The position numbers and the translations under genes are program-made. Below the pieces are notes generated by a model. That model ran no database searches and was not told the origin of the DNA. It saw only the letters and a list, made by a program, of their open reading frames with translations. A DNA stretch of 64,000 nt from a virus (lineage: Duplodnaviria; Caudoviricetes): IMG/VR virus record IMGVR_UViG_2791355019_000001, positions 214-64,213 of that record; one strand, 5' to 3'. Below are positions 20,519-64,000 of the stretch, in pieces. Numbering within the stretch: the first letter of the stretch is position 1; every line of letters begins with the position of its first letter.

Positions 20519-20958
20519 TACAGCCCCAGCTTCGCCCGCTCATCCCTACCCCACTGGCGCACCGACTCGACGAACTCGCCGAACACCGCCATCTCCTGCG
20601 TCTCGTCGCTCGTCGGCGCGTACAGCCCGTTCGCCGCGCCGACGCCGATGCGGGCGAAATACATCTCGTCGTCGAGCGTGTAGGCGGCACGGATCTGCTC
20701 GACCATGCGCTGCGCGATCAGCCGGCAGGCGCGGCTTTCGACCTTGATGCGCTCGCGCAGCCCCGCATCGAGCGCGACCGGCGTCAGCGTGATCTCCGGG
20801 TGCTGCGCCGGCAGCACGGCGCCGTCGGGCATCGACACGTAGGCGAGTCCGTCGAGCGTGCAAAGCTCGAGCGCGCCCTCGGGCAGCTGGGCGCGCAGGC
20901 TGCGCCCGTTCGGGCCGGACTCGATGATCGGGGTGTAGCTATAGATTTGTGCAGGCAT
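20518..20958 (-). CDS. Hypothetical protein downstream of the DGR RT (possible fibre chaperone)
   Basis: ATG at 20958 overlapping the RT 3' end; coupled to the next gene. Confidence 0.55.
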   Translation of the reverse strand: MPAQIYSYTPIIESGPNGRSLRAQLPEGALELCTLDGLAYVSMPDGAVLPAQHPEITLTPVALDAGLRERIKVESRACRLIAQRMVEQIRAAYTLDDEMYFARIGVGAANGLYAPTSDETQEMAVFGEFVESVRQWGRDERAKLGL

Positions 20959-21952
20959 GTCGGTGCGCCTCCGGGAGTTGCGGGACAAGGTCGGGCCGCT
21001 CGGAACGCAAGCGGCGGCAGAAGTGGGCGTAGCTCGCACTGTGGCGCGCGTTCCCCATGATCGACACGAGGCTCGGCACGTCGCCGTGCCGCAGCGAGCG
21101 CGAGAAGGTGTGCAGACTGTGGCGGCGCACGAAGCGCGTTTTGCGCCAAGCGCGGAAGCCGACGAAATTCACGCCGCGCCGGGTCGGCTGGATCGTGTAG
21201 CGCGACAGTTCGAGGCGCAGGCGCTCGTGCAGGAACGTTTCGATCTGTAGCCGCAGCGCGTTCGCCTCGGCGCGCGACGCGATGCCGAACACGATGAAAT
21301 CGTCGACGTAGCGCACATACCGCTTGCGGCCGAGCTCGCGCTTGATGAAGTGGTCGAGCGGGTCAAGGTAGATCAGCGCGAACAGCTGCGACAGCAGGTT
21401 GCCGATCGGAATCCCGGTCGAGTCCGGGTAACGCGCGAACAGTTCGAGCAGCGCGAGCAGCCGCCGGTCCTTGATCCTGCGCGCGACCAGCCGCATCAGC
21501 CGCGCGCGGTCGATGCGGTAGAAGAACTTGCGGATGTCCATCTGCAGCGTGACGCTGCCGTCTGGCGCGTCGCGCAGGAACTGTTGCGCGCGGTCGGCCG
21601 CCCGGTGCGTGCCCTTGCCCTTGCGGCAGCCGTAGCTGTCGTGGATGAATCCGCGATCGAAGATCGGGTAGATCGCCGCATAGATCGCGTGCTGCACTAC
21701 GACGTCGCGAAAGTGCGGCGCATGGATCAGGCGCGGCTTCGGCTCGCGCACCTCGAACGTCACGTAGGGGCGCGGCGCATACGTGCCGGCGTGCAACTCG
21801 TCGTGCAGCCGCTGCAGATTCGCGCCGAGGTCGCGCTCGAATGCGGCCACCGCGACCTTCTTGCGCTTGCGCCGGCGCGCGGCGAGATAGGCCGCGTGCA
21901 GCACGTCAGGCGTGAAGCATTGATCGAACAGATTGCCGTGGCGTTTAGGCAT
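20939..21952 (-). CDS. DGR reverse transcriptase
   Basis: MPKRHGNLF start; KPRLIHAPHFRD, DSYGCRKGKGTH, MDIRKFF, GIPIGNLLSQ (DGR-type SQ), YVRYVDDF; no maturase or endonuclease extension. Confidence 0.95.
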   Translation of the reverse strand: MPKRHGNLFDQCFTPDVLHAAYLAARRRKRKKVAVAAFERDLGANLQRLHDELHAGTYAPRPYVTFEVREPKPRLIHAPHFRDVVVQHAIYAAIYPIFDRGFIHDSYGCRKGKGTHRAADRAQQFLRDAPDGSVTLQMDIRKFFYRIDRARLMRLVARRIKDRRLLALLELFARYPDSTGIPIGNLLSQLFALIYLDPLDHFIKRELGRKRYVRYVDDFIVFGIASRAEANALRLQIETFLHERLRLELSRYTIQPTRRGVNFVGFRAWRKTRFVRRHSLHTFSRSLRHGDVPSLVSIMGNARHSASYAHFCRRLRSERPDLVPQLPEAHRHACTNL

Positions 21953-22082
21953 GGCGGATGGTCCCCACAGCCGTGGCGGGTACTGAAACGCCATGCCCTG
22001 CCGATTTCGCCAAAATGCAGGACGGAGCCATCCCTATGTCGCCAGTATTTGCTGTGTGCAATGTCAGGTCAGCGAAGGCGAA

Positions 22083-22202
22083 ATAGTCGGCGCAGCGAAA
22101 GCCCGCGTTGTTGTTGTCGTTCGACCGGCCGTTGCTCCAACCCCGGTAGAAGACGCCAGCGTTCGCAGCGTTGTTCCAGTTGCCGGAGGCATACGGGAAA
22201 AG
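22083..22202 (-). repeat. DGR template repeat (TR)
   Basis: 120-bp ungapped match to 22672-22791; AAC-rich on the coding strand; lies between avd and RT. Confidence 0.95.
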
Positions 22203-22220
22203 CATTTCGATGGCCCGCCC

Positions 22221-22628
22221 TTATTCGGCCTGCGGGCTCGCCCGCAGACTCCGAATCCAGCCGCCGATCATCGCCCCCAGTTCGTTGATGAGGACCGACA
22301 CGGCGGTATAGCGACGCAGCGACTCGGCGGCGCTGCGCGCGCGTTTGTGATGCTCGAACTCGAAATAGCCCAGCTCGAACGCGAGATTGACGAAGGTCCG
22401 CAACTGCTCGTGCCGAACGTCGAGCTTCGACAGGCTGGTCTTGTTGTGATAGCGCTTCTGGCACTCGACGATGCCCGCGAGCACGTCATAGACGGCTTGC
22501 CGGATCTCCTGGCACAGCCCGTATTTCTCGTGCCGCGGGAAGTGGTTCAGATTCACGTTGAGCAACAGGATCAGCTCGCGGCACTTGTGATGGATCGCGG
22601 CTTGCGGGTTCGTTGTGTTCGTGCTCAT
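22221..22628 (-). CDS. avd: DGR accessory variability determinant
   Basis: FPRHEKYGLCQEIR..LSKLDVRHEQLR..INELGAMIGGWI four-helix Avd signature; between target gene and TR. Confidence 0.9.
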   Translation of the reverse strand: MSTNTTNPQAAIHHKCRELILLLNVNLNHFPRHEKYGLCQEIRQAVYDVLAGIVECQKRYHNKTSLSKLDVRHEQLRTFVNLAFELGYFEFEHHKRARSAAESLRRYTAVSVLINELGAMIGGWIRSLRASPQAE

Positions 22629-22636
22629 GGCATCAG

Positions 22637-22656
22637 GACGGCGCTACCGCGCCGCC
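22637..22656 (-). other. DGR target-recognition hairpin with GGTA (GRNA-type) loop
   Basis: Minus strand GGCGGCGC-GGTA-GCGCCGTC, 6 nt after the target stop codon. Confidence 0.8.
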
Positions 22657-22662
22657 GACCAG

Positions 22663-24930
22663 TCAATTTCCATAGGCGGCGCAGCGAAAGCCCGCGTTGG
22701 TGATGTCGCTCGACCGGCCGACGCTCCAACCCCGGCAGAAGACGCCAGCGACCGCAGCGCCGTTCCAGACGCCGGAGGCATACGGGAAAAGATTGGCGCG
22801 GCCATAGCGGTAATTGCCGTCGTTGCCGAACTGGTTCGTGCCGGCCGCGCTCATGCCGGTCGTCGCCGCTATGCCGCAGCACGAGCGCAGATAATCCGTG
22901 CCGCTCGTCGCGCCGCTGAACACCGCGTTGCTGCCGTTGCCAAAATAGTCCCATCCGGTCGTCGCGCCCCAGGGCAGAAAGCCGGTCACCGCGTCGTAAT
23001 TGGTCGCCAGATTGGCCGCCGTGCCCCATGCGTCCGTTGCGCCGCCGAAGCCGTCAGTCAGGCTCGCCAGCGCGACGCTCTCCTTGAGTACGTAGGCGTC
23101 ACCGGTCGTGATCGCGGTCGTATCGGTCGCGCTAGCGCCCGCTTGCGTGATGCCCAGCATCACTTGATACATCGCGCCATTCACGTCGGTCACGCCGCAC
23201 GCCTGTCCGTTGTGCGTGGTTTTTGCGAGGCTGCTCGCGCTGCCGGTCTTCGGCTTGTTTGCGTTGCCCGAGTCGCCCGCGCTCGTAAACGTGACGCCGG
23301 TGTCGTTGGCGTCGGCCAGGGCGCTGTTGTTGCACCCCTTCGGGAAATTCGTTGTCCCGGCCGCGTCGTACCATGCGCAGTGCGTCGCGCTGGTTGCGGC
23401 TTGGCCGTGCGCGAGCGCGAGCTTCGCCAGCGCGTCATACATGAAGATGCTGGCGACGTTGAACACGCCCGCGCCGCGGCTGCGCGCCAGCACGACGGCA
23501 TCGGCGAGGATGCCGGTGCAGCCTGTCATGCCGCTAGAGCGCGTGTACGTCGTCGTGGTCGTCAGCGAGATCGGCACGCCGAGCGCGACGGACTTGCACG
23601 AGGTCGTGCCGTTCCGGCTCGCGAGGTACTTGTCGATGAAAAAGCCCGGCTTGACCGCCCCGCCATCCTTGAATGCACGGTGCAGCGCGTAGCCTGCTGC
23701 GTTGGCTGCGGCCTCGTCGGCGAACGTCTCGATGCCCACGACATCGATCGCATTGGCGCCGTAGGTCGCATAGCGCGGGCTGGAAGCGTTGCCAATGCGG
23801 TAGTAGAAGCGCGGCACGAATACCATCACCGAGCCGTCGCTGTACTGGTAGTTGCCGTAATTTGCGCTCGCTTTGTCGCTCGTGCCGGCCATCGCGCTGA
23901 AGCCCGAGGGCAGCTCGGCGGGATATTCACCGACGCCGAACCCTTGCCCGCCCGGCGTGCCGACCAGACCGCCGAACGTGGCTTTGGTGGTGAATTTCAC
24001 CGGCGCGCTCCACTCGGACAGGCCGTTGCTGTTCCCTTCGTCCTGCATTTGCCACCAGTACTCCTGGCTCGTGGATAGCCCAGAGACGGTCCAGTTCAGC
24101 AGATTCACGGTGTCGCCAACGTTGCTGGCGATGATGTTCGTCATCGCTTGATCGGTCGCCACTCGGTAGCTGCGAGACTTTTGCGTATCCTCCAGTCCGT
24201 ACCAGGCGAAAGCCGAGCCGGTCAGCGTGACCGAGCCGCCTTGGTCGGTGGCACCATTGGCTGGCGATACGACAGTCGGCGTTTGCACGCCGGCGGCCTG
24301 CGCGTCGATCACGAACTCGGTCGGCACGTCATCCATCGTCACCGTCAGCGTGACCGCGCCCGCGGCGGGTGGCGCAGTGAAGGTGATCGTGTCTCCGGCG
24401 AGGCTGACCGTGCCGGCGCTGACTTGCACGACATACTCGGAAAACGCGCTGTAGTTGGTGATGGTGTAGGTTTTTTCTTGTGTGACGTATGGGCTGGGGT
24501 CGCCGGAGAGGGTTACGCCGACGCCGCTCCGAATCTCGATATTCCCGGCGCCCAGGAGGACCTGGCCGTTGACGGTCTTGATGTTGGCGCCGGAAACAAG
24601 GGTCGCCTGCTTGCTCTCGATCGCCTGCAGCGCATCAGACAGCGCCCCGGCGGTCAGCCGCAATTCAGCCCGCGTGCCTGCCGCCCAGGCCTGCGCTGCC
24701 GTACCTTCTTGCGCACGTTCAACGGTAAGCACGCCGCCCGTGCGGGCCGTGCACTTGACGATCTCCCATGCTGCCTCGTTGCCGTTTTCATCCAGGCCAA
24801 TCAGGGTGGCTCTGAATATGCCGTTCGCGGCATCCGGGAAGAGAGCCCCGCTGGTGACTTCGATTACCGTGTCTTCCGCTGCAGCCGGCGCCACCAGCGT
24901 CGTGATTGCGTTGTTGGCAAATTGCTCCAC
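22663..24930 (-). CDS. DGR target: tail fibre / major tropism determinant-like protein with C-terminal C-type lectin fold
   Basis: Fibre motif KQATLVSGANIKTVNG, Ig/FN3-like middle, GFFIDKYLAS..GVTDVNGAMYQ..GFRC; VR at the 3' end; GTG start with GAAGGAG RBS. Confidence 0.88.
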   Translation of the reverse strand: MEQFANNAITTLVAPAAAEDTVIEVTSGALFPDAANGIFRATLIGLDENGNEAAWEIVKCTARTGGVLTVERAQEGTAAQAWAAGTRAELRLTAGALSDALQAIESKQATLVSGANIKTVNGQVLLGAGNIEIRSGVGVTLSGDPSPYVTQEKTYTITNYSAFSEYVVQVSAGTVSLAGDTITFTAPPAAGAVTLTVTMDDVPTEFVIDAQAAGVQTPTVVSPANGATDQGGSVTLTGSAFAWYGLEDTQKSRSYRVATDQAMTNIIASNVGDTVNLLNWTVSGLSTSQEYWWQMQDEGNSNGLSEWSAPVKFTTKATFGGLVGTPGGQGFGVGEYPAELPSGFSAMAGTSDKASANYGNYQYSDGSVMVFVPRFYYRIGNASSPRYATYGANAIDVVGIETFADEAAANAAGYALHRAFKDGGAVKPGFFIDKYLASRNGTTSCKSVALGVPISLTTTTTYTRSSGMTGCTGILADAVVLARSRGAGVFNVASIFMYDALAKLALAHGQAATSATHCAWYDAAGTTNFPKGCNNSALADANDTGVTFTSAGDSGNANKPKTGSASSLAKTTHNGQACGVTDVNGAMYQVMLGITQAGASATDTTAITTGDAYVLKESVALASLTDGFGGATDAWGTAANLATNYDAVTGFLPWGATTGWDYFGNGSNAVFSGATSGTDYLRSCCGIAATTGMSAAGTNQFGNDGNYRYGRANLFPYASGVWNGAAVAGVFCRGWSVGRSSDITNAGFRCAAYGN
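22672..22791 (-). repeat. DGR variable repeat (VR)
   Basis: Differs from TR at 13 positions, all adenine in TR on the coding strand. Confidence 0.95.
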
Positions 24931-24932
24931 GC

Positions 24933-25214
24933 TCAAATCTCCTTCACGCGACAAAAGAGTTCGTCTTCAAGAATTTCCCCGCCCGCGGTCGTGACCTTGA
25001 TGGTGATCTTGTATTGCACCCCATCCGTGCCGCCGCTTACCCAGATCCGGGCGCGATCCCCCGCCACGAGAACCGGGGATACTTCAAGCCCAGCAGGCTC
25101 AGCCCTGCATTCGTCGATCGTTCCGATCTCGTCGCCTGGGTCGAGCGCATCGGTGTAGATCACACTCTTGCTCACGCGCTCACCCGGCTGCTTGCTGAAA
25201 GAGCCCAACTTCAT
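24933..25214 (-). CDS. Small tail/fibre adaptor-like protein
   Basis: KQPGE..IWVSGGTDGVQYKIT; in the tail operon with coupled stop/start. Confidence 0.6.
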   Translation of the reverse strand: MKLGSFSKQPGERVSKSVIYTDALDPGDEIGTIDECRAEPAGLEVSPVLVAGDRARIWVSGGTDGVQYKITIKVTTAGGEILEDELFCRVKEI

Positions 25215-53736: not shown

Positions 53737-54032
53737 ACCGCGACCAGATCGAAACCGGCGGGCCGGCATTCCCGATGCAGGAACCCCAAGCGATCCACGC
53801 CTACGCCGTCGCAGCGGTCGAAGGGATTACGGACCCGGACGAGCGTGATCGCGCGTATCTCAAGGCGCGCGGCGAGGCGGTCGGCGGGATGAGTCTGCGC
53901 GACTACTTCGCAGCGAAGGCGATGCAGGGGTTTGCAGCAGACTCCGATACCGCATGGGGTGATGGTGTAAATGGGGTCGCCCGAACTGCATATGAATGGG
54001 CGGACGCCATGCTGCGAGCACGGAGGGCGTGA
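53733..54032 (+). CDS. Phage hypothetical protein
   Basis: TGGPAFP..GMSLRDYFAAKAMQG..AYEWADAML, a common phage motif. Confidence 0.75.
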   Translation: MNRDQIETGGPAFPMQEPQAIHAYAVAAVEGITDPDERDRAYLKARGEAVGGMSLRDYFAAKAMQGFAADSDTAWGDGVNGVARTAYEWADAMLRARRA

Positions 54033-54682
54033 TGAAAGAACGCCCGGTTCTGTTCTCGGCACCAATGGTGCGCGCGATTCTCGAAGGACGGAAGACGCAG
54101 ACGCGCCGGGCCGTGAAGATCACGAACCGCACGCCTGGCCTGGCCGCCTGCCTGCAGCCGGCTGACCCGGCATGGGTGAGGAAGAAGACCGCCGCCGAAC
54201 TGTGCCCCTACGGCCAGCCCGGCGACCGGCTGTGGGTGCGCGAGGCGTGGGCAGAAGGTTGGACATATGGGGGTGCGAGGCGCTGCGTCTTCTACCGTGC
54301 GACATTGGATGGTCTGCAGGGCGATGCGGAGACGGGCATCAACCACGACCCGAAGCTCGGCGCATCTCCACCGAACATCATTCGGTGGCGTCCATCCATC
54401 CACATGCCCCGCTGGGCCTCGCGCATCCTCCTGGAAGTGACTACCGTTCGCGTCGAGCGGCTGCAGGATATCAGCGAGGCCGACGCAATCGCGGAGGGCA
54501 TCCTCGAACAGCGCAGTCAGACTGACGCAGGATGGGTCGATTACTGGCCTAGCGAGGATGGCGAGCCGTTCGCGCGCGCCTCGGAGGCATACCGCGCCCT
54601 GTGGGAGTCGATCAACGGCCCCAGTTCGTGGACGGCAAACCCGTGGGTGTGGGTCATCACGTTCAGGAGGATCGAGCAATGA
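54032..54682 (+). CDS. ASCH/PUA-like phage protein
   Basis: MVRAILEGRKTQTRR..GDRLWVRE..WRPSIHMPRWASRI..W.ANPWVWV. Confidence 0.8.
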   Translation: MKERPVLFSAPMVRAILEGRKTQTRRAVKITNRTPGLAACLQPADPAWVRKKTAAELCPYGQPGDRLWVREAWAEGWTYGGARRCVFYRATLDGLQGDAETGINHDPKLGASPPNIIRWRPSIHMPRWASRILLEVTTVRVERLQDISEADAIAEGILEQRSQTDAGWVDYWPSEDGEPFARASEAYRALWESINGPSSWTANPWVWVITFRRIEQ

Positions 54683-55113
54683 ACCGCCGCCGCCTCCGCG
54701 CCCGCCCCACCATCGCCGACATGGCCAAGGCCTTCGGCTGCGTCGACGCCATGCTCGACAAGCTTTCGCAGGGCTGGATCCACGAGATCCAGGGGCAGCC
54801 GGTGTTCAAGAACCCCGCCGACGAAACCTGGTACGACATCCCCGCCGCGCTCGCCGGCTGGATCGATCTGTGGCAGCGCATCGCGACGAAGCGCTCGCTC
54901 GACATCGACCTGAAGCCGCTCGCCAAGCTCGCCGCGAAGCTGAACCACGGCGTGCCGCTGCAGCCCGCCGAGGTCGCCGCCTGCATCGAGATCGTCACGG
55001 CCTGCAAGCGCGCCTACCGGCGGATGGACGTCTATGAGATCGGCAGCCTCGTGCGGACGCAGCTGATCGCGAACGAGGTCGAACTGCACGGGCTGACGGG
55101 GGTGGAGGCATGA
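54679..55113 (+). CDS. Hypothetical protein
   Basis: AGGAGG RBS and coupled overlaps. Confidence 0.6.
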   Translation: MNRRRLRARPTIADMAKAFGCVDAMLDKLSQGWIHEIQGQPVFKNPADETWYDIPAALAGWIDLWQRIATKRSLDIDLKPLAKLAAKLNHGVPLQPAEVAACIEIVTACKRAYRRMDVYEIGSLVRTQLIANEVELHGLTGVEA

Positions 55114-56672
55114 AGCGCGACGCCTTCACACTGCCCCTGCTCGCCGAGGAGCTGATCATCGACAACTTCGCCGGCGGCGGCGGGACCTCGACCGGCCTCG
55201 AAGCCGCCTTCGGCCGCCCCGTCGATATTGCGATCAACCACGACCCGGAAGCGCTCGCGATGCATGCGGCGAACCACCCGCACACGCGGCACCTGTGCGA
55301 ATCGGTGTGGGACGTCGATCCGCGCGAGATCAAGGGGCCGGTCGGCCTGGTGTGGCTGTCGCCGGACTGCAAGCACTTCAGCAAGGCGAAGGGCGGCAAG
55401 CCCGTCGAGAAGAAGATCCGCGGCCTCGCATGGGTCGCGCTGCGCTGGGCGGCGGTGAAGCGCCCGCGGGTGATCATGCTCGAGAACGTCGAGGAGTTCA
55501 TCACCTGGGGCCCGCTCATCGAGCATCCGGACGGCACGATGCGGCCCTGCCCGCGGCGCAAGGGCCGCGAGTTCGGCGCCTTCACGAACGCGCTTCGCCG
55601 GCAAGGCTACTCGGTCGATTGGCGCGAGCTGCGCGCCTGCGACTACGGCGCGCCGACGATCCGCAAGCGCTTCTTCCTGATCGCGCGCCGCGACGGGCTG
55701 CCGATCCGCTGGCCCGAGCCGACGCACGGCCACCCGGCGAGCCGCGAGGTCCTCGCCGGCCACCGCAAGCCGTGGCGCACGGCTGCCGAGTGCATCGACT
55801 GGACTCTACCCTGCCCGTCGATCTTTGAGCGCAAGCGCCCGCTTGCTGATGCCACGCTGCGCCGGATCGCGAAGGGGGTGATGCGGTACGTGGTGGAGGC
55901 TGTGGAGCCGTTCATCGTCGGACTCGCTCACGGCGAGTTCAGCGAGCGAGCCGGCAGCCGTACCCATGCACTGCACGACCCGATGCGCACGATCCACGCA
56001 GGCGGCGGAAATTTCGCACTGGTCGCCCCGGTGCTGACCGAGTGCGCGAACGCCTCCTCCCCGCGCAGCATGCCGATCGATGAACCTCTGCGGACGATCT
56101 GCGCCGAGACGAAGGGCGGGCATCACGCCCTCGTCGCCGCCTTCATGGCGAAACACTACGGCGGCGTGGTCGGCCACGAACTGCACGGCGAGCCGCTTCA
56201 TACCGTCACGAGTCAGGACCACAACGCACTCGTCGCCTCGCACCTGGTGAAGCTGCGGAACAACGGCGTTGGCAGCGATCACCGTGAGCCGCTTCACACC
56301 ATCACCGGCGGCGGCGAGCACTTCGGCGAGGTCCGCGCCTTCCTCGTGAAGTATTACGGCACCGATCAGGACCCGCGCCTCGAGGAACCGCTCCACACGG
56401 TGACCACGAAGGACCGCTACGGCCTGGTCACCGTCGCCGGCGAGCAGTACCAGATCGCCGACATCGGCATGCGGATGCTCGCCCCGCGCGAACTCTTCCG
56501 GGCGCAAGGCTTCCCCGAGCACTACATCATCGGCGACGACCCGGCGCAGGGCCTGTGCCTGACGAAGTCGGCGCAGGTACGCATGTGCGGGAACTCCGTC
56601 TGCCCGCCGGTCGCGCAGGCGCTGGTGACGGCGAATTTCGAGCACGAGAAGGCGTGGAGGGTTCAGGCATGA
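55110..56672 (+). CDS. C5 DNA cytosine methyltransferase
   Basis: DNFAGGGG, SPDCKHFS, ENVEEF, RKRFF, repeated EPLHT target-recognition segments, GNSV. Confidence 0.92.
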   Translation: MKRDAFTLPLLAEELIIDNFAGGGGTSTGLEAAFGRPVDIAINHDPEALAMHAANHPHTRHLCESVWDVDPREIKGPVGLVWLSPDCKHFSKAKGGKPVEKKIRGLAWVALRWAAVKRPRVIMLENVEEFITWGPLIEHPDGTMRPCPRRKGREFGAFTNALRRQGYSVDWRELRACDYGAPTIRKRFFLIARRDGLPIRWPEPTHGHPASREVLAGHRKPWRTAAECIDWTLPCPSIFERKRPLADATLRRIAKGVMRYVVEAVEPFIVGLAHGEFSERAGSRTHALHDPMRTIHAGGGNFALVAPVLTECANASSPRSMPIDEPLRTICAETKGGHHALVAAFMAKHYGGVVGHELHGEPLHTVTSQDHNALVASHLVKLRNNGVGSDHREPLHTITGGGEHFGEVRAFLVKYYGTDQDPRLEEPLHTVTTKDRYGLVTVAGEQYQIADIGMRMLAPRELFRAQGFPEHYIIGDDPAQGLCLTKSAQVRMCGNSVCPPVAQALVTANFEHEKAWRVQA

Positions 56673-57052
56673 CCAACATCGTCTATCGCATCCAAGATGC
56701 CGATGGCCGCGGCCCTTGGAAACTCGGATTCTCGCGGCACTGGGTCGAGGATCGCGACGACCATGACCTGTTGATCCCGTGGTACCGGGAATTCGGCCGC
56801 GTCGATCAGCGCGCCATTGTCGGCATGCACATCGGCTGCGGCTGTCGCACCGAAGAGCAGCTTCGGCGGTGGTTCACGCCCACCGAGTACGCGCGCCTCG
56901 TGGAGTTCGGCTATCGCGCCGTGCAGATGGAAGTCGGCCGCATTCTGGCCGAATCGAACATCCAGTGCGTGTTCGAGCGGGTGAGGCCGCTACGATGGGA
57001 TGTCGAGCCGTTCGCGCTGTACGAGATCGGCGTGAAGGGAGTGACGGCATGA
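56669..57052 (+). CDS. Hypothetical protein
   Basis: VYRIQDADGRGPW..QLRRWFT; coupled overlaps. Confidence 0.6.
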   Translation: MTNIVYRIQDADGRGPWKLGFSRHWVEDRDDHDLLIPWYREFGRVDQRAIVGMHIGCGCRTEEQLRRWFTPTEYARLVEFGYRAVQMEVGRILAESNIQCVFERVRPLRWDVEPFALYEIGVKGVTA

Positions 57053-58275
57053 CCCGCGACCTCTCCCTCTTCGAAGGCGGCGCCCGCCTGCAGATGACGG
57101 AATCGATCGAGCTGACGATCCAGTCGATGCGGGCCCACGGCCCGCGGCACGATCACTGGGTGTTCGCATGGTCCGGCGGCAAGGACTCGACCGCGACGCT
57201 CACCCTGATCCTCTACCTCATTGCCGCCGGCAAGATCGCGGCGCCGAGGCGCATCACCGTGCTGTACGCCGACACCAGGCAGGAACTGCCGCCGCTGGCC
57301 ATTGCTGCGCAGGAGATCATGGACTGCCTCGCCGAGCGCGGCGTCGCGTACCGCATCGTCCGCGCGCCGCTCGACAAACGATTCCTGCCCTACATCCTCG
57401 GCCGCGGCGTTCCGCCTCCGAACAACAACACGCTTCGGTGGTGCACGCGCCAGATCAAGGTCGATCCGATGACGGCCGCGATCGCCGAGACCCTCGCTGA
57501 CGGTACCGCACTGGTGATCACCGGCGTGCGCCAGGGCGAGAGCGCGATCCGCGACCGCCGCATCGAGATGAGCTGCAGCAAGGACGGCGCAGAGTGCGGC
57601 CAGGGCTGGTATCAGCAGGTCCTGCCGGAGTCGAAGGGCGTGCGCGGCCGCATCGCCACCCTCGCGCCGATCCTGCACTGGCGCGTCTGCCACGTCTGGG
57701 AATGGCTGCGGCACTGGGCCCCAACTGCGGAGTTCGGCGAGTGGCCGACCGAGGTCATCGCCGACGCCTACGGCGGCGACGAGGCCGAGGAGATCAACGC
57801 CCGCACCGGCTGCGTCGGCTGCCCGCTTGCGCAGGAGGAGAAGGCGCTCGAGGCGATCCTCGCCATGCCGCGCTGGCAGTGGCTGGCACCGCTGCGTCGC
57901 CTGAAGCCGATCTACCGGGAACTGCGCGAGCCGAGGAACCGGTTGCGCAAATCCGGCGCCGAGACGCGCAAGGACGGCTCGCTCGCTGCCAACCCGCAGC
58001 GCATGGGCCCGCTCACCTTCGAGGCGCGCGAATGGGCGCTCGCCGAGATCCTGAGCATCCAGGCCGAATGCAACGCCGCACGGCCTACGCGCGTGCCGGC
58101 GCTGTCGCTGATCGACGGCGAGGAAGAAGCCCGCATCCGCGAGCTGATCGCCGCTGGCACCTGGCCAGACGGATGGAGCGGCGATGAGCCGCATGCGGAC
58201 GAGTTCCTCGGCGTGACCGTGTATGCGAACGGTGCCGAGCAGCACGATCTATTCGGACTTGAGGAAACAGCATGA
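57049..58275 (+). CDS. PAPS reductase / DndC-like PP-loop protein
   Basis: AWSGGKDST, RWCTRQIKVDP, TGVRQGES, RTGCVGCP, GPLT. Confidence 0.85.
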   Translation: MTRDLSLFEGGARLQMTESIELTIQSMRAHGPRHDHWVFAWSGGKDSTATLTLILYLIAAGKIAAPRRITVLYADTRQELPPLAIAAQEIMDCLAERGVAYRIVRAPLDKRFLPYILGRGVPPPNNNTLRWCTRQIKVDPMTAAIAETLADGTALVITGVRQGESAIRDRRIEMSCSKDGAECGQGWYQQVLPESKGVRGRIATLAPILHWRVCHVWEWLRHWAPTAEFGEWPTEVIADAYGGDEAEEINARTGCVGCPLAQEEKALEAILAMPRWQWLAPLRRLKPIYRELREPRNRLRKSGAETRKDGSLAANPQRMGPLTFEAREWALAEILSIQAECNAARPTRVPALSLIDGEEEARIRELIAAGTWPDGWSGDEPHADEFLGVTVYANGAEQHDLFGLEETA

Positions 58276-58532
58276 CCACAAAACCCCTCACCGCAATCAA
58301 GCCGATCTACGTCGACCTCCCGACCGTTGCCGAGATCGTCGCGCTGTCGGTCACGACGGTGCAGGAACTCGTCAGGCAGGGGCAATTCCCGGCCCCGCGC
58401 CAGACATCCGGCCGCCGCGTCGCCTGGCTGGTGCGCGAGGTCGAGGAATGGGCGGAGAGCCGGCCGACCTCGAGTCTGTTGCCGCCGCCGAATACGGGGG
58501 CGAAGAAGCCGCGGAAGCAGGTTGCGGCGTAA
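58272..58532 (+). CDS. AlpA-family excisionase / regulator
   Basis: GQFPAPRQTSGRRVAWLVREVEEWA. Confidence 0.85.
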   Translation: MTTKPLTAIKPIYVDLPTVAEIVALSVTTVQELVRQGQFPAPRQTSGRRVAWLVREVEEWAESRPTSSLLPPPNTGAKKPRKQVAA

Positions 58533-58594
58533 CGACCGAAATGAGCGGACCTGAGCCGCTTTTGGCGAAGGTCCGCTCGATGAACTAGTTCGAC
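58527..58594 (-). other. attC site (distal)
   Basis: Minus strand GTCGAAC-N5-CAT(C)GAGCGGACCT..AGGTCCGCTCATT-N6-GTTACGC, with an extra C in L''. Confidence 0.75.
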
Positions 58595-58621
58595 GGCACG
58601 AATACCGGAGAGGATGAAACG

Positions 58622-58888
58622 ATGAGCACTGAACTGGACCTCGACGATGTGGCATCGCAGAGCAACAAGGCGGTCGCGGAACTGGCTGCGCTGCGCACGG
58701 AACTCGCGATCCTGCGGGGTCAGATTGCGACTGCGCCTCGCGGCATTTCTGCGGAGGCGGATTTCGAGCGAATGACGTGGACATTTGAGATTGAGCAGGG
58801 ATGCCGGGTCGGTGGCGGCACCTACGCGCTGGTGTGCCTGCCGTCGAACGACCAAGGCAAGCGGACCGAACGAAGCGCAGCGAAGTGA
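58622..58888 (+). CDS. Cassette-borne hypothetical protein, inverted relative to attC
   Basis: GGAGAGG RBS; stop codon lies inside the next attC. Confidence 0.6.
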   Translation: MSTELDLDDVASQSNKAVAELAALRTELAILRGQIATAPRGISAEADFERMTWTFEIEQGCRVGGGTYALVCLPSNDQGKRTERSAAK

Positions 58889-58915
58889 GTGTCCGCCTTG
58901 GGCACCGAGTTGCCC
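58843..58915 (-). other. attC site (middle)
   Basis: Minus strand GGGCAAC-N5-GCCCAAGGCGGAC..GTCCGCTTGCC-N6-GTTCGAC. Confidence 0.7.
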
Positions 58916-58943
58916 GACGGCCAATCAGAACGAGGACAGTCAA

Positions 58944-59225
58944 ATGGATAAACCACACCGGGCCGTGAGGCTCACCCTGAAGATGGAGGCGGACTCTCCG
59001 CACGAACTGGCTACCGCACTGATGAACTTTGCCGTGCAGATCGAGCGCGGCGAGGTTTCGAAAGGCGTCAGCGGAGGGTGCAGCAGCGGCGCGATTTACG
59101 AACTGCTGCACGCGCCGGAGCAGACGCACGAAGCATATTTCGAGCAGGTGCGCGAGTACCTGGCGAGCAAGTCGGGCAACGCAGAGCTGAAAGGCGCCTG
59201 CACGAAAGAGCAACAGGACCAGTGA
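58944..59225 (+). CDS. Cassette-borne hypothetical protein, inverted relative to attC
   Basis: GAGG RBS; reads into attC (..SGNAELKGA..). Confidence 0.6.
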   Translation: MDKPHRAVRLTLKMEADSPHELATALMNFAVQIERGEVSKGVSGGCSSGAIYELLHAPEQTHEAYFEQVREYLASKSGNAELKGACTKEQQDQ

Positions 59226-59265
59226 CGCCGGCTGTTCAGGCGTCCTTTCGAGCGCCGGGTTAGCC
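59174..59265 (-). other. attC site (proximal)
   Basis: Minus strand GGCTAAC-N5-GCT(C)GAAAGG(A)CGCCTG..CAGGCGCCTTTCAGC-N5-GTTGCCC. Confidence 0.8.
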
Positions 59266-59289
59266 GGCACAGTAACCACGGAGAATGGC

Positions 59290-59619
59290 ATGGCACTGCA
59301 ATGCACAACGATGCAACAAGAGGACGCGCTGGCCGCTGTGATTGGCGAGCGTTCTTTCCAAGACCAGAAGTGGGGAACCATCACCGAGCACCCGCACGAG
59401 GTTGGTTCCTGGCTCACGATCATGCGGCAACTGCTGAACGATGCCGAGCGGGCCTACATGAGCCAACGCGGCGACATTGGCGCCCTGGACGAACTGCGCA
59501 AGGTCGTAGCGGTCGGCGTGGCCTGCATGGAGCAGCACGGCGTTCCGTCCCGCTTGCGCAAGGAGCCCGCCATCAACCTGGACGGCTACCGCGAGGCGGG
59601 CAGCGCCCTGGCTGGGTGA
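59290..59619 (+). CDS. Cassette-borne small helical protein (MazG-like fold possible)
   Basis: ER.FQDQKWG..H....WL..ELRKVVAVGVACMEQHG; GGAG RBS. Confidence 0.6.
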   Translation: MALQCTTMQQEDALAAVIGERSFQDQKWGTITEHPHEVGSWLTIMRQLLNDAERAYMSQRGDIGALDELRKVVAVGVACMEQHGVPSRLRKEPAINLDGYREAGSALAG

Positions 59620-59620
59620 C

Positions 59621-59650
59621 GGCTAACTCCAATTAACAGAGAGAAATCGT
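59621..59650 (-). other. attI-like site
   Basis: Minus strand CTGTTAATTGGA-GTTAGCC; no attC palindrome follows; lies between the cassette array and the divergent intI fragment. Confidence 0.5.
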
Positions 59651-59686
59651 CGGTTGGCGTTCCACGATCACCCGGAAACCCTTGCC

Positions 59687-59872
59687 ATGACTGAAACCAT
59701 CGAACAAACCGCGACAGTCGCCACGGCGCAGCAGCCGCGCCTGATGGATCGGGTACGGGCGGCGCTCCGGGTTGCGCACTACGCGCTGAGCACGGAGCGC
59801 ACGTACTGTCACTGGATCAAGCGCTACATCCTGCACCACAACAAGCGCCACCCGCTCGACCGGATCTCCTGA
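59687..59872 (+). pseudogene. intI: Truncated integron integrase (N-terminal SAM-like domain only)
   Basis: PRLMDRVRAALRVAHYALSTERTYCHWIKRYILHHNKRHP matches the IntI N-terminus; stops 5 codons later, just before the phage integrase 3' end. Confidence 0.8.
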
Positions 59873-59874
59873 CG

Positions 59875-61170
59875 TTACCTTCGAGCCAGCCCCTCCAGGT
59901 GCGCATCCAGACGTCGGAGCCACTCCACCCGCTGATCGTCGTAGGAATGCAGGTTGTACGTCCCGACGATCCCCGGCTGCATGTGCCCGATGACCGCCTC
60001 GCCGACCTCGTTCGGGCAACCGATCGACGCGAGCAGCGTGCGCGCTGTCCGGCGCAGATCGTGCGGCGCCCAGTGCGTCACCGGCAACCGCGGCCTCGGC
60101 TCATCCGGCCTCGTGCGGCTGTAGGGCTGGTGGTGATAGACGGCGACCTGCACCGTCTTCTGCTCGACAGGCTTCACGACCTTCGTCTTCGCCGGGAACA
60201 GATAGCCAGCCCCGTACAGATCCTTCCGGCGTAGCACGACCGTGCGCGCGCGCCCGAAGAGCGGTACGCGCAGGTCCGTGGCGTTCTCGTGGCGGGCGTT
60301 CTTCGTCTTCTCCTTCGGGCACTGCCACCACAGAATGCCGTCCGCCTCCTCGCGCACTTCGCTGCCGGACATGCCGCAGATCTCCGCGCCGCGCGTCGCC
60401 GTCCAGAGGTAGAGCGTCAGCACGTCCTCGACGAGCGAGGAGAAGTTCGGCAGCCATCGGATGACCTCGCCTGTCTCGTCGGCCGTCAGTACGCGCTTCG
60501 ACGTGCCGACGTGCTGGCCGCCAATCTTCTTCCCCTTGCTCTTGATCTTGCCTCTCAAGATAAGTCGCCACCAGTTCGGCGATGTGTCCGGCAGCCTCCC
60601 CGAGTCGATCGCGTAGTCCCACGCCGCGCCCAGTTCCGAGCGGAGGTTCTGCGCCTGCACCGGGGCACGCTCAGCGATGGACCGGATGAGGTCAAAGGCC
60701 TGGCTGCGGGTGAGCGTTGCTGCAGGGAGGGAGGCGGTTGCGCCGAGGTCCAGATCGAACATGCGCCGGACCTCGGCTGCGCCCTTCCGTTGCCGGGTGA
60801 TGCGGATGTGTCCGGCGTAGTAGTCGTTGCACACGTCGAGCACGGTATAGGCGGCGGTCATGGCCTGCCGGCGCTTCGCCTCGACCTGCCGGCGCTTCTC
60901 TGCCCGCGCTTCCTTCGCAGCAAGCGCGGGATCTTCCCCGGCCTCGCGCGCCCTGCGCAGCCCATCCCACGCCGCGACAGCCAGATGCACCGACATCGCC
61001 GGCCACTCGCCGAGCTTCGTCTGTCGCATGCGCCCGTCGATCGGGCTCTTGTAGCGGTACGTCCACGCGCGGCCGCTCTCCGTGGCGACGATCCGAAGAC
61101 CGGGGAATTCAGGGCTGGTAAGATGCTCGCCCGCAGGCAGGAGCTTGATGGTGCGTGCGTCGAAGGTCAT
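59875..61170 (-). CDS. int: Prophage tyrosine integrase with N-terminal arm-binding domain
   Basis: PGLRI..WTYRYKSP..KLGEWP arm domain; catalytic TATRGAE, KTKN, HDLRRTART, IGH, TY. Confidence 0.93.
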   Translation of the reverse strand: MTFDARTIKLLPAGEHLTSPEFPGLRIVATESGRAWTYRYKSPIDGRMRQTKLGEWPAMSVHLAVAAWDGLRRAREAGEDPALAAKEARAEKRRQVEAKRRQAMTAAYTVLDVCNDYYAGHIRITRQRKGAAEVRRMFDLDLGATASLPAATLTRSQAFDLIRSIAERAPVQAQNLRSELGAAWDYAIDSGRLPDTSPNWWRLILRGKIKSKGKKIGGQHVGTSKRVLTADETGEVIRWLPNFSSLVEDVLTLYLWTATRGAEICGMSGSEVREEADGILWWQCPKEKTKNARHENATDLRVPLFGRARTVVLRRKDLYGAGYLFPAKTKVVKPVEQKTVQVAVYHHQPYSRTRPDEPRPRLPVTHWAPHDLRRTARTLLASIGCPNEVGEAVIGHMQPGIVGTYNLHSYDDQRVEWLRRLDAHLEGLARR

Positions 61171-61173
61171 CCT

Positions 61174-61268
61174 GGCGTAACTTCGGCTATGACGTTACCG
61201 TCCCGGCGTAACTTCGGATTTGGGATGCCGGCGTAAGATCGGTTTCTGGATGGCCAAAAGCTACGCCA
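61174..61268. repeat. Putative integrase arm-type binding repeats
   Basis: GGCGTAACTTCGG at 61174-86 and 61205-17, GGCGTAA at 61230-36, inverted CTACGCCA at 61261-68. Confidence 0.6.
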
Positions 61269-61369
61269 ATCTGCCAAGTGTTGGCAAGTTTTGACGTGTG
61301 CAGGCGTTACTACCGGTAAAACTGCAGGCCGCTCGGATTCACATACGAAACAACGGATTAGGCTGCAAA

Positions 61370-64000
61370 TTGACGGTAAAACAGGACGTTACGGACGAGG
61401 GCATCGCGAGTCACACGCCAGTGATGCAGCAGTACCTGCGGCTCAAGGCGCAGCATCCTTCCACGCTGCTCTTCTACCGCATGGGCGATTTCTACGAGCT
61501 CTTCTTCGAGGACGCGGAAAAAGCTGCGCGCCTCCTCGACATCACCCTGACCACCCGCGGCCAGTCCGGCGGCAGGCCGATCCGGATGGCGGGCGTGCCC
61601 TTCCACGCCGTCGAGCAGTACCTCGCCCGCCTGGTGAAGCTGGGCGAATCGGTGGTGATCGCCGAGCAGGTCGGCGAGCCGGGCGCGACCAAGGGGCCGA
61701 TGGAGCGCGCGGTGAGCCGCATCGTCACCCCCGGTACGCTGACCGACGCCGCGCTGCTCGACGACCGCCGCGACGCCCTCCTGCTGGCGGCCAGCGTGCA
61801 CCGCGGCGTGCTCGGCCTGGCCTGGCTCAACCTCGCCAACGGCGACTTGCGCCTCATGCAGTGCGCGGCCGAGAACCTGCAGGCCCAGTTCGAGCGCCTG
61901 CGCCCGGCCGAAGTCCTCGTTCCGGACGGCCTTGCGCTGCCGCTGCTCGAGCGCCTCGTGCCGGCACTGCGGCGCCTGGCCGACTGGCAGTTCGACCCCC
62001 AGACCGGCCTCCGCCTGTTGACCACGCACTTCGGCACCCGCGACCTCGCCGGTTTCGGCGTTGCCGAGACCGGCGCGGACGGCCTGCCGCTGGCGCTCGG
62101 TGCGGCGGCGGCGCTGTACGACTACGCCCAGGCCACCCAGCGCCAGACCCTGGCCCACGTCACCGGCCTCACCGTCGAACGCGAATCCGAATACCTGCGC
62201 CTGGACGCCGCGACCCGGCGCAATCTCGAACTGACCGAGACCCTGCGCGGCGAACCTGCCCCCACCCTGCTGTCGCTGCTCGACGGCTGCGTCACCAGCA
62301 TGGGCTCGCGCTGGCTGCGCCATGCGCTGCACCACCCGCTGCGCGAGCGCGCCATCCCCGCCGCACGCCAGGCCGCAGTCGCGGAGCTGGTCGGCGAAAC
62401 CACCGACTACGGCATCGACAGCCGCGACGGCCGCCTGGCCGCAGCGGTGCGCACAACGCTGCGCGGCGTCGCCGACGTGGACCGCATCACCGCCCGCATC
62501 GCGCTGCGCAGCGCGCGCCCGCGCGACCTCTCGGCGCTGCGCGAAAGCCTCGCCCGCCTGCCCGCGCTGGGTGAGGCCTTGTCGGCGTGCGGCGCGGCGC
62601 TGCTGGTCGAGCTGCGCGCTGCGCTGGAGATCGCCCCCGACCCTCTGGCCCTGCTGCAGCGCGCGATCGCCGCCGAGCCCGCCGCCATGGTGCGCGACGG
62701 CGGCGTGATCGGACCCGGCTTCGACCCCGAACTCGACGAACTGCGCGCGATCCAGAGCAATTGCGGCGAATTCCTCCTCGCCCTTGAAGCGCGCGAGCGC
62801 GCGCGCAGCGGCATCGCCAACCTCAAAGTGGAGTTCAACCGCGTCCATGGCTTCTATATCGAAGTCAGCCGCGCCAACGCCGACAAGGTGCCCGACGACT
62901 ACCGCCGCCGCCAGACGCTGAAGAACGCCGAACGCTATATCACCCCGGAACTGAAAGCCTTCGAAGACAAGGCCTTGTCGGCGCAGGAGCGCGCCCTGGC
63001 ACGCGAGAAACTGCTCTACGACCAGATCCTCGATGCCCTCGCCGGCCACATTCCGGCACTGCAGCGCATCGCCCGCGCGCTGGCGACGGTAGACGCGCTC
63101 GCCGCCTTCGCCGACGCTGCGCTGCGCAACGGCTACGTGCAGCCGCGCTTCATCGACACCCCCGGCGTGCACATCACCGGCGGCCGCCACCCGGTGGTCG
63201 AACGCCAGGTGGAAAACTTCATCCACAACGACGCCCGCCTCGCCCCCACCCGCCGCATGCTGATGATCACCGGCCCCAACATGGGCGGCAAATCGACCTT
63301 CATGCGCCAGGTCGCGCTGATCTGCCTGCTCGCCCACGTCGGCAGCTTCGTCCCGGCCGAGGCTGCCGAGCTCGGCCCGCTCGACGCGATCTTCACCCGC
63401 ATCGGCGCCTCCGACGACCTCGCCTCCGGGCGCTCGACCTTCATGGTCGAAATGACCGAAGCCGCCGCCATCCTGCACGGCGCCACCGCCCACAGCCTGG
63501 TGCTGATGGACGAGATCGGGCGCGGGACCTCCACCTTCGACGGTCTCGCGCTGGCCTTCGCCATCGCCCGCCACTTGCTGGAAAAAAACCGCAGCCTGAC
63601 CCTGTTCGCCACCCATTATTTCGAACTCACCCGGCTCGCCGCCGACTACCCGGAGTGCGCCAACGTGCATCTGGACGCGGTCGAGCACGGCCACCGCATC
63701 GTCTTCCTGCATGCGCTGGAGGAAGGCCCGGCGAGCCAGAGTTACGGCATCGAGGTCGCCGCGCTCGCCGGCATTCCGGCAGGCGTGATCCGCGACGCCA
63801 AGCGGCGGCTGCGCGCGCTGGAGAACCGCGAGATCGACGCCGGCCCGCAGGCCGACCTGTTCGCCGCCCTGCCCGAGCCCGAGGACGAACCCCTGTCGCA
63901 CCCGGTATTGACCGAACTGGCCGCGCTCGACCCCGACACCCTCAGCCCGCGTGAGGCGCTCGAGCACCTCTACGCCCTGAAGCGTCTGGCCGACGCCTGA
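61370..64000 (+). CDS. mutS: DNA mismatch repair protein MutS (start uncertain, probably phage-supplied)
   Basis: [59 protein letters not shown]; stop at 64000. Confidence 0.97.

Follow-up and report, generated by a model that had tools for sequence, protein, structure and literature searches.

The DNA considered here (the window) is a 64,000-nucleotide stretch of IMG/VR virus record IMGVR_UViG_2791355019_000001, and the element in question is an integron module at 58527-59872, which lies between alpA, the last gene of a plus-strand phage operon, and the gene for the phage integrase. A reading of the bare sequence (the original prediction) had placed an integron inside a prophage, with all of its cassette genes inverted. 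We find that the window is a true prophage, with PHROG and family matches to a portal protein (E 2e-157), a major head protein (E 4e-105), terminase, tail fibre, RecT and exonuclease, and that virion, packaging and integration genes are contiguous with the module. The attI site and the IntI reading frame are in turn homologous to those of intact integrons elsewhere, and the placing of an integron within a prophage is thus upheld.

Recombination sites and a deleted integrase gene

Candidate attC sites were scored with a covariance model, R1, for which other genomes supplied all 14 training sites, each entered as its top strand, and the window none; the model is home-built and is not that of IntegronFinder, and the whole window was searched with filters off. 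The features of the locus are listed below, where ORF denotes an open reading frame, L074 is a contig of Aromatoleum toluolicum strain T that carries a related prophage, X2 is a run of public contigs, and the clade is the group of IntI proteins described further on. A slash within a motif marks the crossover.

58272-58532, plus strand: alpA-like helix-turn-helix gene, matching Pfam HTH_17 and Phage_AlpA and the PHROG excisionase/regulator families
58527-58594, minus strand: attC1, the attC of cassette A, last of the array and abutting alpA; R1 47.6 bits, E 9e-12
58533-58848, minus strand: cassette A, 316 bp from crossover to crossover, holding attC1, a ribosome-binding site (RBS) and most of ORF1; matching ends at 58588/58839
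58622-58888, plus strand: ORF1, 88 aa; 21 homologues at E<=0.001; GC by codon position 0.65/0.51/0.72
58843-58915, minus strand: attC2, the degenerate attC of cassette B; R1 11.7 bits, E 0.73, rank 4/38, marginal
58849-59179, minus strand: cassette B, 331 bp; matching ends at 58909/59171
58944-59225, plus strand: ORF2, 93 aa; 43 homologues at E<=0.001; GC by codon position 0.65/0.40/0.78
59174-59265, minus strand: attC3, the attC of cassette C, of canonical geometry; R1 hit at 59179-59260, 25.4 bits, E 5e-5
59180-59626, minus strand: cassette C, 447 bp, adjoining attI; matching ends at 59259/59620; matched by X2 record 12
59290-59619, plus strand: ORF3, 109 aa; 137 homologues at E<=0.001; phrog_2831, E 7.5e-5
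59627-59686, minus strand: attI region; crossover at 59626/59627 (G/TT on the minus strand); conserved in 8/8 clade loci
59687-59872, plus strand: delta-intI, an intI gene with an in-frame internal deletion of ~0.8 kb; PF13495, E 5e-11
59875-61170, minus strand: phage integrase, matching Pfam Arm-DNA-bind_3 and Phage_integrase and phrog_1; 91% amino-acid identity to the L074 Int

The boundaries of the module are set by its backbone neighbours: alpA on the left, whose TAA stop (58530-58532) falls within the R box of the last attC, and on the right the integrase gene, which is convergent with delta-intI and is followed by mutS from 61298. A methylase gene, a PAPS-reductase-like gene, also part of the prophage, and alpA are co-directional with all three cassette ORFs.

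R1 matches all three of the attC-like palindromes named in the original prediction, every one of them on the minus strand, and its scores of 47.6, 25.4 and a marginal 11.7 bits supply the covariance test that had been proposed for these sites, here with our own model. The best of them, attC1, gives only a partial match of 8.6 bits on the plus strand, and many genomes of this bacterial family have its stem-loop at ~84-86% identity, there in the textbook attC layout of RYYYAAC, a 5-nt spacer, a 3-bp L box, an extra base, the stem, the L box, 5 nt and GTTRRRY. The score of attC3 rises to 39.2 bits in the R1 search of its own genome, and attC2 has a left arm 76% identical to that of attC1 (repeat family D4) and an L box that pairs poorly. 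Judged by fold, R and L boxes, extra-helical bases and covariance score together, attC1 and attC3 are clearly attC sites and attC2 is a marginal one; folding z-scores, which are weak evidence by themselves, are -3.1 and -2.8 for attC1 and only -0.7 to -1.9 for attC2 and attC3. The sole other R1 hit in the window with E <0.1 (18601-18665) lies within a virion gene and is probably due to chance. A hand-written attC scanner that demanded a perfect 3-bp L box and a 6-of-7 stem recovered only attC3 in the window and none of the sites in related arrays; it was too strict and was replaced by R1. A reading of the palindromes as repetitive extragenic palindromic sequences or terminators was considered and rejected.

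The polarity of the array follows from the extra-helical bases. The plus strand of attC3 reads AAC-5 nt-GCT...CAGGCG-T-CCTTTC-G-AGC-5 nt-GTT, with the extra-helical G and T both in the 3' arm, and is classed as bottom-strand type by a hand-written structure scan. We calibrated this rule on a class 1 cassette of known orientation from the genome's own 53.7-kb second contig, in which the extra C and A lie in the 5' arm of the top strand and so the G and T in the 3' arm of the bottom strand; the plus strand of attC3 is therefore the bottom (recombining) strand. The array's top strand is accordingly the minus strand, as had been predicted, in keeping with the R1 hits. In 23 + 7 + 9 + 24 further loci, R1 places attC always upstream of intI and on the opposite strand, with few exceptions (in L186 one hit follows intI and shares its strand, and some of the sites give a weak second hit on their opposite strand); the window integron therefore keeps the classical geometry, with intI opposite the attC top strand.

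The predicted attI-like site is equally well defined. Conservation starts exactly at AAC/T..AATT in 8/8 clade loci, that is from 59626/59627, and extends to the intI start at 59687, and the sequence on the cassette side is unrelated from locus to locus (GGCT, GCCC, GCAT etc.). Such an abrupt start of conservation at AA/C is the signature of attI x attC crossovers at G/TT, and the site has what attI should have, adjoining the 5' end of intI with its junction at G/TT. Its folding does not exceed chance (z +0.85 and +0.38), in accord with use in double-stranded form.

The adjoining reading frame had been taken for the first 61 codons of an IntI, which is correct as to its N-terminal homology (83% identity to the N-terminus of the intact 335-aa IntI in genome G132) and incorrect as to the rest. 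The 61 codons are ~56 N-terminal codons fused in frame, at codons 55-58, to the last 5 codons of IntI (LDRIS and the stop). The frame ends in PLDRIS where the intact L074 IntI ends in PLDRIA, each followed by the stop, and the alignment shows that the window lacks L074 10177-10986, with ~9 nt of microhomology at the deletion junction; the gene has therefore suffered an in-frame internal deletion and not a 3' truncation. Its TIGR02249 score is 34.5 bits against a cut-off of 265, and the window thus lacks the intact IntI of a complete integron. Record 4 of run X1 bridges the deletion, spanning 59582-59961 with zero differences; this run, which spans the array and matches at >=99% identity in all 10 contigs, may be the window's own source and not an independent sample. 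With three minus-strand attC sites within 0.74 kb and its intI deleted, the window copy is operationally a cluster of attC sites lacking integron integrase (CALIN, defined in PMC4889954 by two or more attC on the same strand within 4 kb and no functional intI nearby) that retains attI and delta-intI.

A full intI and related attC sites had also been proposed as things to look for in the host, and the search gives an intact intI on another contig and one solitary attC. The host's sole intact IntI is an IntI1 (508 bits) in a class 1 integron on the 53.7-kb second contig (C2:21129-26222). This integron has a duplicated 5' third of intI1 directly upstream of the IntI1 gene (C2:22199-22516) and one 408-aa cassette, followed by genes that, from their protein starts, we take to resemble qacEdelta1, sul1 and orf5. 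The only other attC of the window's family in the host lies at C1:1643510-1643576 (L033 1501-1567), scores 62.8 bits on the plus strand and lies in a low-GC stretch; a 307-aa ORF follows it on the same strand, and a presumably TniB-like ORF is its neighbour. This site may be a cassette or a transposon-borne remnant. The window array is frozen unless an IntI acts on it in trans, for which the IntI1 of the plasmid-like second contig is the one candidate, its cross-reaction being hypothetical.

Cassettes built attC first

The cassettes have the matching ends expected of them, exact over 11 bp (58588/58839), 10 bp (58909/59171) and 8 bp (59259/59620), just as the original prediction had listed them. 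Its three plus-strand ORFs, each with its own RBS, two of them running into an attC and all of them reversed, are likewise found as described. A GGAG-like RBS precedes each ATG by 6-10 nt, the ATG lies 24-28 nt past an attC, and ORF1 and ORF2 cross the crossover into the next attC. Every cassette is thus built attC first, as an attC, ~25 nt containing the RBS, and a gene that ends at or just past the crossover, and the genes therefore read toward attI and intI, contrary to the classical rule by which cassette genes point away from attI and are expressed from the cassette promoter Pc. With only 24-28 nt between attC and start codon, there is no room for a promoter within the cassette.

As judged from their homologues and from a codon-position GC typical of sense frames, ORF1-3 are real genes, encoded on the strand opposite the attC top strand. 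ORF1 matched no Pfam or PHROG family. ORF3 belongs to a widespread family of small phage genes and is found at 14 IMG/VR loci; its closest IMG/VR relative (L154) lies in an ordinary phage operon without attC hairpins. The last 12 codons of ORF1 are read from attC2 (58849-58888) and the tail of ORF2 from attC3 (59180-59225). ORF1 homologues are conserved as far as ...LPSN, in which N76 is the AA/C crossover codon, and then stop or carry unrelated tails, and ORF2 homologues diverge after about residue 76-79, again at the crossover; the conserved core of each protein thus extends to the crossover, and its tail is encoded by the attC that happens to come next. Because these tails are translated neighbouring attC sites, the ends of the ORF1 and ORF2 proteins are predicted to depend on array context: in the circularised cassettes, ORF1 would end ...SNDRNERT and ORF2 ...SGNDQGKRTERSAAK.

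Related prophages and an IntI clade of phage contexts

The L074 contig of A. toluolicum strain T carries the same prophage end beside mutS, in the order alpA, two cassettes, a full 335-aa intI, int and mutS. A blastn comparison with the window gives three blocks: 58293-58530 (alpA), 85% identical in nucleotide sequence to L074 8879-9116; 59617-59859 (attI and the 5' end of intI), 78% identical to L074 9931-10176; and 59851-63992 (int to mutS), 82.5% identical to L074 10987-15097. Homology breaks at 58530 and at 59617, and the cassette interval between these points is unrelated. In run X2, record 10 differs from the window at one position in 58227-58534 and at none in 59851-61000, and holds 2,677 nt between 58534 and 59851, compared with 1,316 nt in the window, and record 12 matches 59179-59627 only, which is cassette C, and continues in unlike sequence at its 59179 end. 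The breaks against L074, the record 10 insert and the lone cassette C of record 12 mark the cassettes as discrete mobile units. Together with the attI junctions of the eight loci, they provide the cassette-precise variation among relatives that the original prediction had called for. In G191 (locus L032), a genome of the same genus whose related prophage also occupies the mutS site, the alpA-int interval (L032 9855-10884) has no integron and holds an unrelated low-GC ORF of 177 aa and neither attC nor intI; gain or loss of the module in this group of phages therefore involves the whole block.

IntI is present in 242/401 genomes of the bacterial family, and the window's type is a small clade within this diversity. 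In a tree of 108 rows, the seven nearest IntI proteins (G132, L074, L075, G149, G229, G313 and G133) group with a support of 99 in the SH-aLRT branch test, and when 57 IMG/VR rows are added (165 rows), the smallest clade that holds those seven has 30 tips (SH-aLRT 94). These comprise 7 rows of prophage-like context and 23 from IMG/VR viral contigs, and 0/100 of the other genome rows. The IntI is full length and stop-free in 7/7 of these relatives, with TIGR02249 scores of 448-486 bits against the cut-off of 265. Clade arrays are short, with ~2-8 cassettes seen.

The clade is usually found beside phage integration genes, and these differ from one member to the next. Phage-type integrases adjoin intI in G132, G229, G313, G133 and L074, with mutual identities <=31%, and 10 hand-picked neighbours from the 23 viral-contig loci comprise 8 tyrosine integrases, 1 large serine recombinase and 1 lambda-type portal. 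The serine recombinase locus (L168 9164-10744) has the clade IntI next to a protein with Resolvase, Recombinase and Zn ribbon domains and not next to a tyrosine integrase. With a home-made profile, a tyrosine recombinase is detected within 2.5 kb downstream of intI in 13/23 clade loci versus 0/68 non-clade genome loci; the same profile is positive in 8/31 non-clade viral loci. Those eight (L190, L193-L195, L197, L199, L203 and L204) have non-clade IntI proteins of 45-61% identity with a tyrosine recombinase within 2.5 kb, and published reports may understate how common integrons of other lineages are in phages. Among deposited phage genomes, a protein search with the clade IntI (50,697 records) returned 10 matches, all <60% identical, and in a DNA search only the integrase gene was matched (7 records). 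Among the rows sampled, the IntI clade occurs only in prophage or viral-contig contexts, and the integron is a trait of this lineage and not a peculiarity of one prophage.

The reversed orientation of the cassette genes extends across the clade. Each segment between two attC sites, taken with a margin of 50 nt, was assigned the orientation of its longest ORF, a crude rule, and ties were counted as reversed in the sister-clade count and as canonical in those clade counts where intI is on the plus strand. By this rule, 18/22 segments of clade arrays in genomes are reversed, with 2/4 of the exceptions overturned by strong PHROG hits to the reversed ORF, as are 32/38 segments on viral contigs; in total ~50/60 clade segments are reversed versus 8/42 in sister-clade chromosomal arrays (34/42 canonical). 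PHROG families are matched by 5/10 reversed cassette ORFs (E 2e-13 to 3e-41), one of them an NTP-pyrophosphohydrolase family. A GC-phase strand test was right for 27/27 window genes and 119/132 300-nt chunks, proved ambiguous or contradictory in chromosomal cassettes of low third-position GC, and was set aside for the longest-ORF rule.

Several further observations concern these prophages. On the prophage-like contig that carries one of the clade integrons, a second cluster of four attC sites lies near the terminase gene (L070, G313:C31, 17526-18909); it is a CALIN with reversed genes, one NTP-pyrophosphohydrolase-like and one a member of phrog_1017. The int gene directly adjoins the 5' end of mutS in three related prophages (window 61171-61440, L074 12308-12436 and, in G191, L032 12180-12357), and a 2026 paper describes a Burkholderia gladioli prophage that is also integrated adjacent to mutS (PMC13366799). 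Elsewhere in the window, a reverse transcriptase gene (phrog_1423, E 6e-107) lies beside the tail-fibre gene (20939-24954), consistent with a diversity-generating retroelement.

Alternative readings and a proposed mode of operation

Our best explanation, which the comparisons above make probable, is that 58527-59872 is a disabled copy of an integron type of temperate phages whose reversed cassettes enter the phage operon in sense. The original prediction spoke of an integron captured inside a prophage; a one-off capture of a piece of a host chromosomal integron, through imprecise excision or illegitimate recombination as in Vibrio anguillarum phages and with an accidental reversal of no adaptive meaning, is in our view unlikely. 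Published phage integrons are indeed mostly captured pieces of host arrays (PMC9892861), attC sites of this type abound in the chromosomal integrons of the bacterial family, and the G191 prophage of the same site and genus does without an integron; but the same module, with a complete intI, occupies the same place beside mutS in a related prophage of another named species, the IntI clade takes in 0/100 chromosomal rows and adjoins one serine recombinase as well as >=5 integrases unrelated to one another, no chromosomal integron of this family is present in the host to act as donor, and the reversal is systematic across the clade. The idea in the original prediction of an IntI supplied in trans does not describe the design, the relatives encoding IntI in cis and the window copy being a deletion derivative. 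Slightly harder still to credit is that the module is a dead relic, its palindromes at most intergenic hairpins among three ordinary phage genes, and that even the intact relatives have no useful rate of exchange. The deleted intI, the degenerate attC2 and the want of any cassette common to the arrays fetched all suit such a relic, and what speaks against it is that the relatives' IntI proteins are without exception full length, stop-free and above the family cut-off, that near-identical backbones carry different arrays which break at crossovers, and that cassette C occurs alone in another context.

The reversal itself would vanish if the plus strand were the true top strand, in which case the cassettes would be ordinary ones (RBS, gene, attC) in an array that starts at alpA and has the piece of intI at its far end. 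On the plus strand each ORF is indeed followed by the attC that it runs into, which gives the array a classical look, and the matching ends fit both orientations because attC is near-palindromic. We nevertheless consider this very improbable: attC1 scores 47.6 bits on the minus strand versus 8.6 on the plus, the extra-helical G and T are in the plus-strand 3' arm, the conserved attI starts at AA/C by the 5' end of intI, the conservation of ORF1 and ORF2 homologues ends exactly at the crossover of a minus-strand top, and the X2 match at 59179-59627 is a unit only if the minus strand is top.

Several points weigh against a phage integron type and are set out here together. The window copy may be wholly inert, with its intI destroyed and attC2 marginal. 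No homologue of ORF1-3 was found in any other fetched array, and R1 gave 0 hits at E<=0.1 beside ORF3 homologues on 14 viral contigs; the case for movement of cassettes A-C specifically therefore rests on one metagenome contig. The clade was initially defined from its resemblance to a single query, and IMG/VR was scanned with six peptide patterns only, so that "phage only" describes this sample and not all data, and IMG/VR calls may include host flanks; one clade member, G149, adjoins host-like genes with no integrase in view. Of the 13 clade neighbour matches, 7 came from the training set of the profile itself, and 10/60 clade segments are not reversed under the crude longest-ORF rule. A promoter scan of 54000-61400 on both strands gave 0 promoter-like sites versus 0.8 expected.

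A terminator scan of 54000-61400 gave 5 terminator-like sites versus 3.7 expected, with none between alpA and delta-intI, and a LexA box, in the consensus CTGT-N8-ACAG with <=1 mismatch, has 11 matches in the window versus 14.8 expected and none in 59600-59700. Contigs of RNA library X3 cover 57516-58534, 59292-59442 and 59851-61000; such contigs show neither transcription nor strand, and the gaps between them are meaningless. In G229 the order methylase ... cassettes, intI, int runs on one strand, like the phage lambda early leftward (PL) operon, which ends with int.

The working that we propose for intact members of this phage integron type is as follows. IntI would insert a cassette strand-specifically at attI, just upstream of intI, and the reversed gene would thereby join the 3' end of the alpA-ending phage operon in sense. 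Cassettes and intI would then be transcribed by read-through from phage promoters and not from Pc, which is the simplest model of expression, and the module would let phages exchange small accessory genes at this point. Expression from PL in place of Pc, as supposed in the original prediction, is a hypothesis of the same kind. In the window itself, expression of the three genes probably continues, as for any other genes of the operon.

Most parts of this system are those of classical integrons, both class 1 and sedentary chromosomal: a TIGR02249 IntI in the relatives, an attI by the 5' end of intI, an intI divergent from the attC top strand, R boxes with a 5-nt spacer and 3-bp L box, extra-helical G and T on the bottom strand, a G/TT crossover, and an attC at the attI-distal end of each cassette. 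It differs from them in that its genes are on the bottom strand and face attI and intI, where a Pc at attI could therefore not express them, in that the module stands at the end of a phage operon beside a phage integrase, in the shortness of its arrays, and, in the window, in the internal deletion of intI. Chromosomal arrays also hold a scattered minority of reversed cassettes, such as those of toxin-antitoxin systems, which have their own promoters. In these, too, individual cassette genes run against the array; the reversal here is instead the rule of a lineage, in cassettes with no room for a promoter. Orientation of toxin-antitoxin cassettes is mentioned in a figure legend (Fig. 1) of PMC13108822, and the working of integrons is said to depend on the entry of cassettes in an orientation that Pc can express (PMC5027507; PMC13108822).

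In the inverted integron-integrase group (Treponema and others; PMC4889954), intI and cassette genes are co-directional, as they are here, and orientation likewise departs from the standard; there it is intI that is flipped relative to attC, and here intI is classical and the cassette genes are flipped. The window does not belong to that group, its intI being on the plus strand and its attC top strand the minus strand, and intI and attC are on opposite strands in every clade locus examined. Integron parts in temperate phage genomes have been described before, as rare finds: a survey of 10,705 phage genomes found 3 complete integrons and 1 In0, which it describes either as captured parts of host arrays, from Vibrio or Shewanella, or, in P1, as class 1 mosaics, and phage attC sites were tested with IntI1 (all PMC9892861). 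Neither a phage-specific IntI lineage nor a rule of reversed cassettes figures in the abstract, section 9 (part 1) or section 12 of that paper, and our literature search, whose coverage left out most subscription journals and all supplements, turned up no account of an IntI clade specific to phages or of cassettes that are reversed as a rule. Phage hot spots for morons and accessory genes next to int share with this module the variability of the stretch that separates int from the last early gene, as in G191 with its 177-aa gene; here the variable genes are bounded by attC and attI, and exchange can therefore be site-specific in place of illegitimate recombination.

Integrons are viewed as bacterial devices, and the comparisons made here suggest that some temperate phages may keep an integron type of their own to swap small accessory genes. 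In its widest form, a proposal on which we are evenly divided, temperate phages of Rhodocyclaceae-like Betaproteobacteria would maintain their own integron lineage between the early operon and int; attC-first cassettes would give them site-specific exchange of accessory or counter-defence genes, genes and IntI would be induced by phage transcription and not by a LexA-controlled Pc/PintI, and transcription through the array would displace the recombining bottom strand, which could couple mobility to induction. Software that looks for integrons on the assumption that genes lie on the attC top strand would annotate such reversed arrays wrongly. If the separate clade and its reversed orientation hold, there is a second, viable integron architecture, phages have a means of swapping genes precisely at the hot spot for accessory genes beside int, and these arrays offer a natural way to test what determines the orientation and expression of cassettes.

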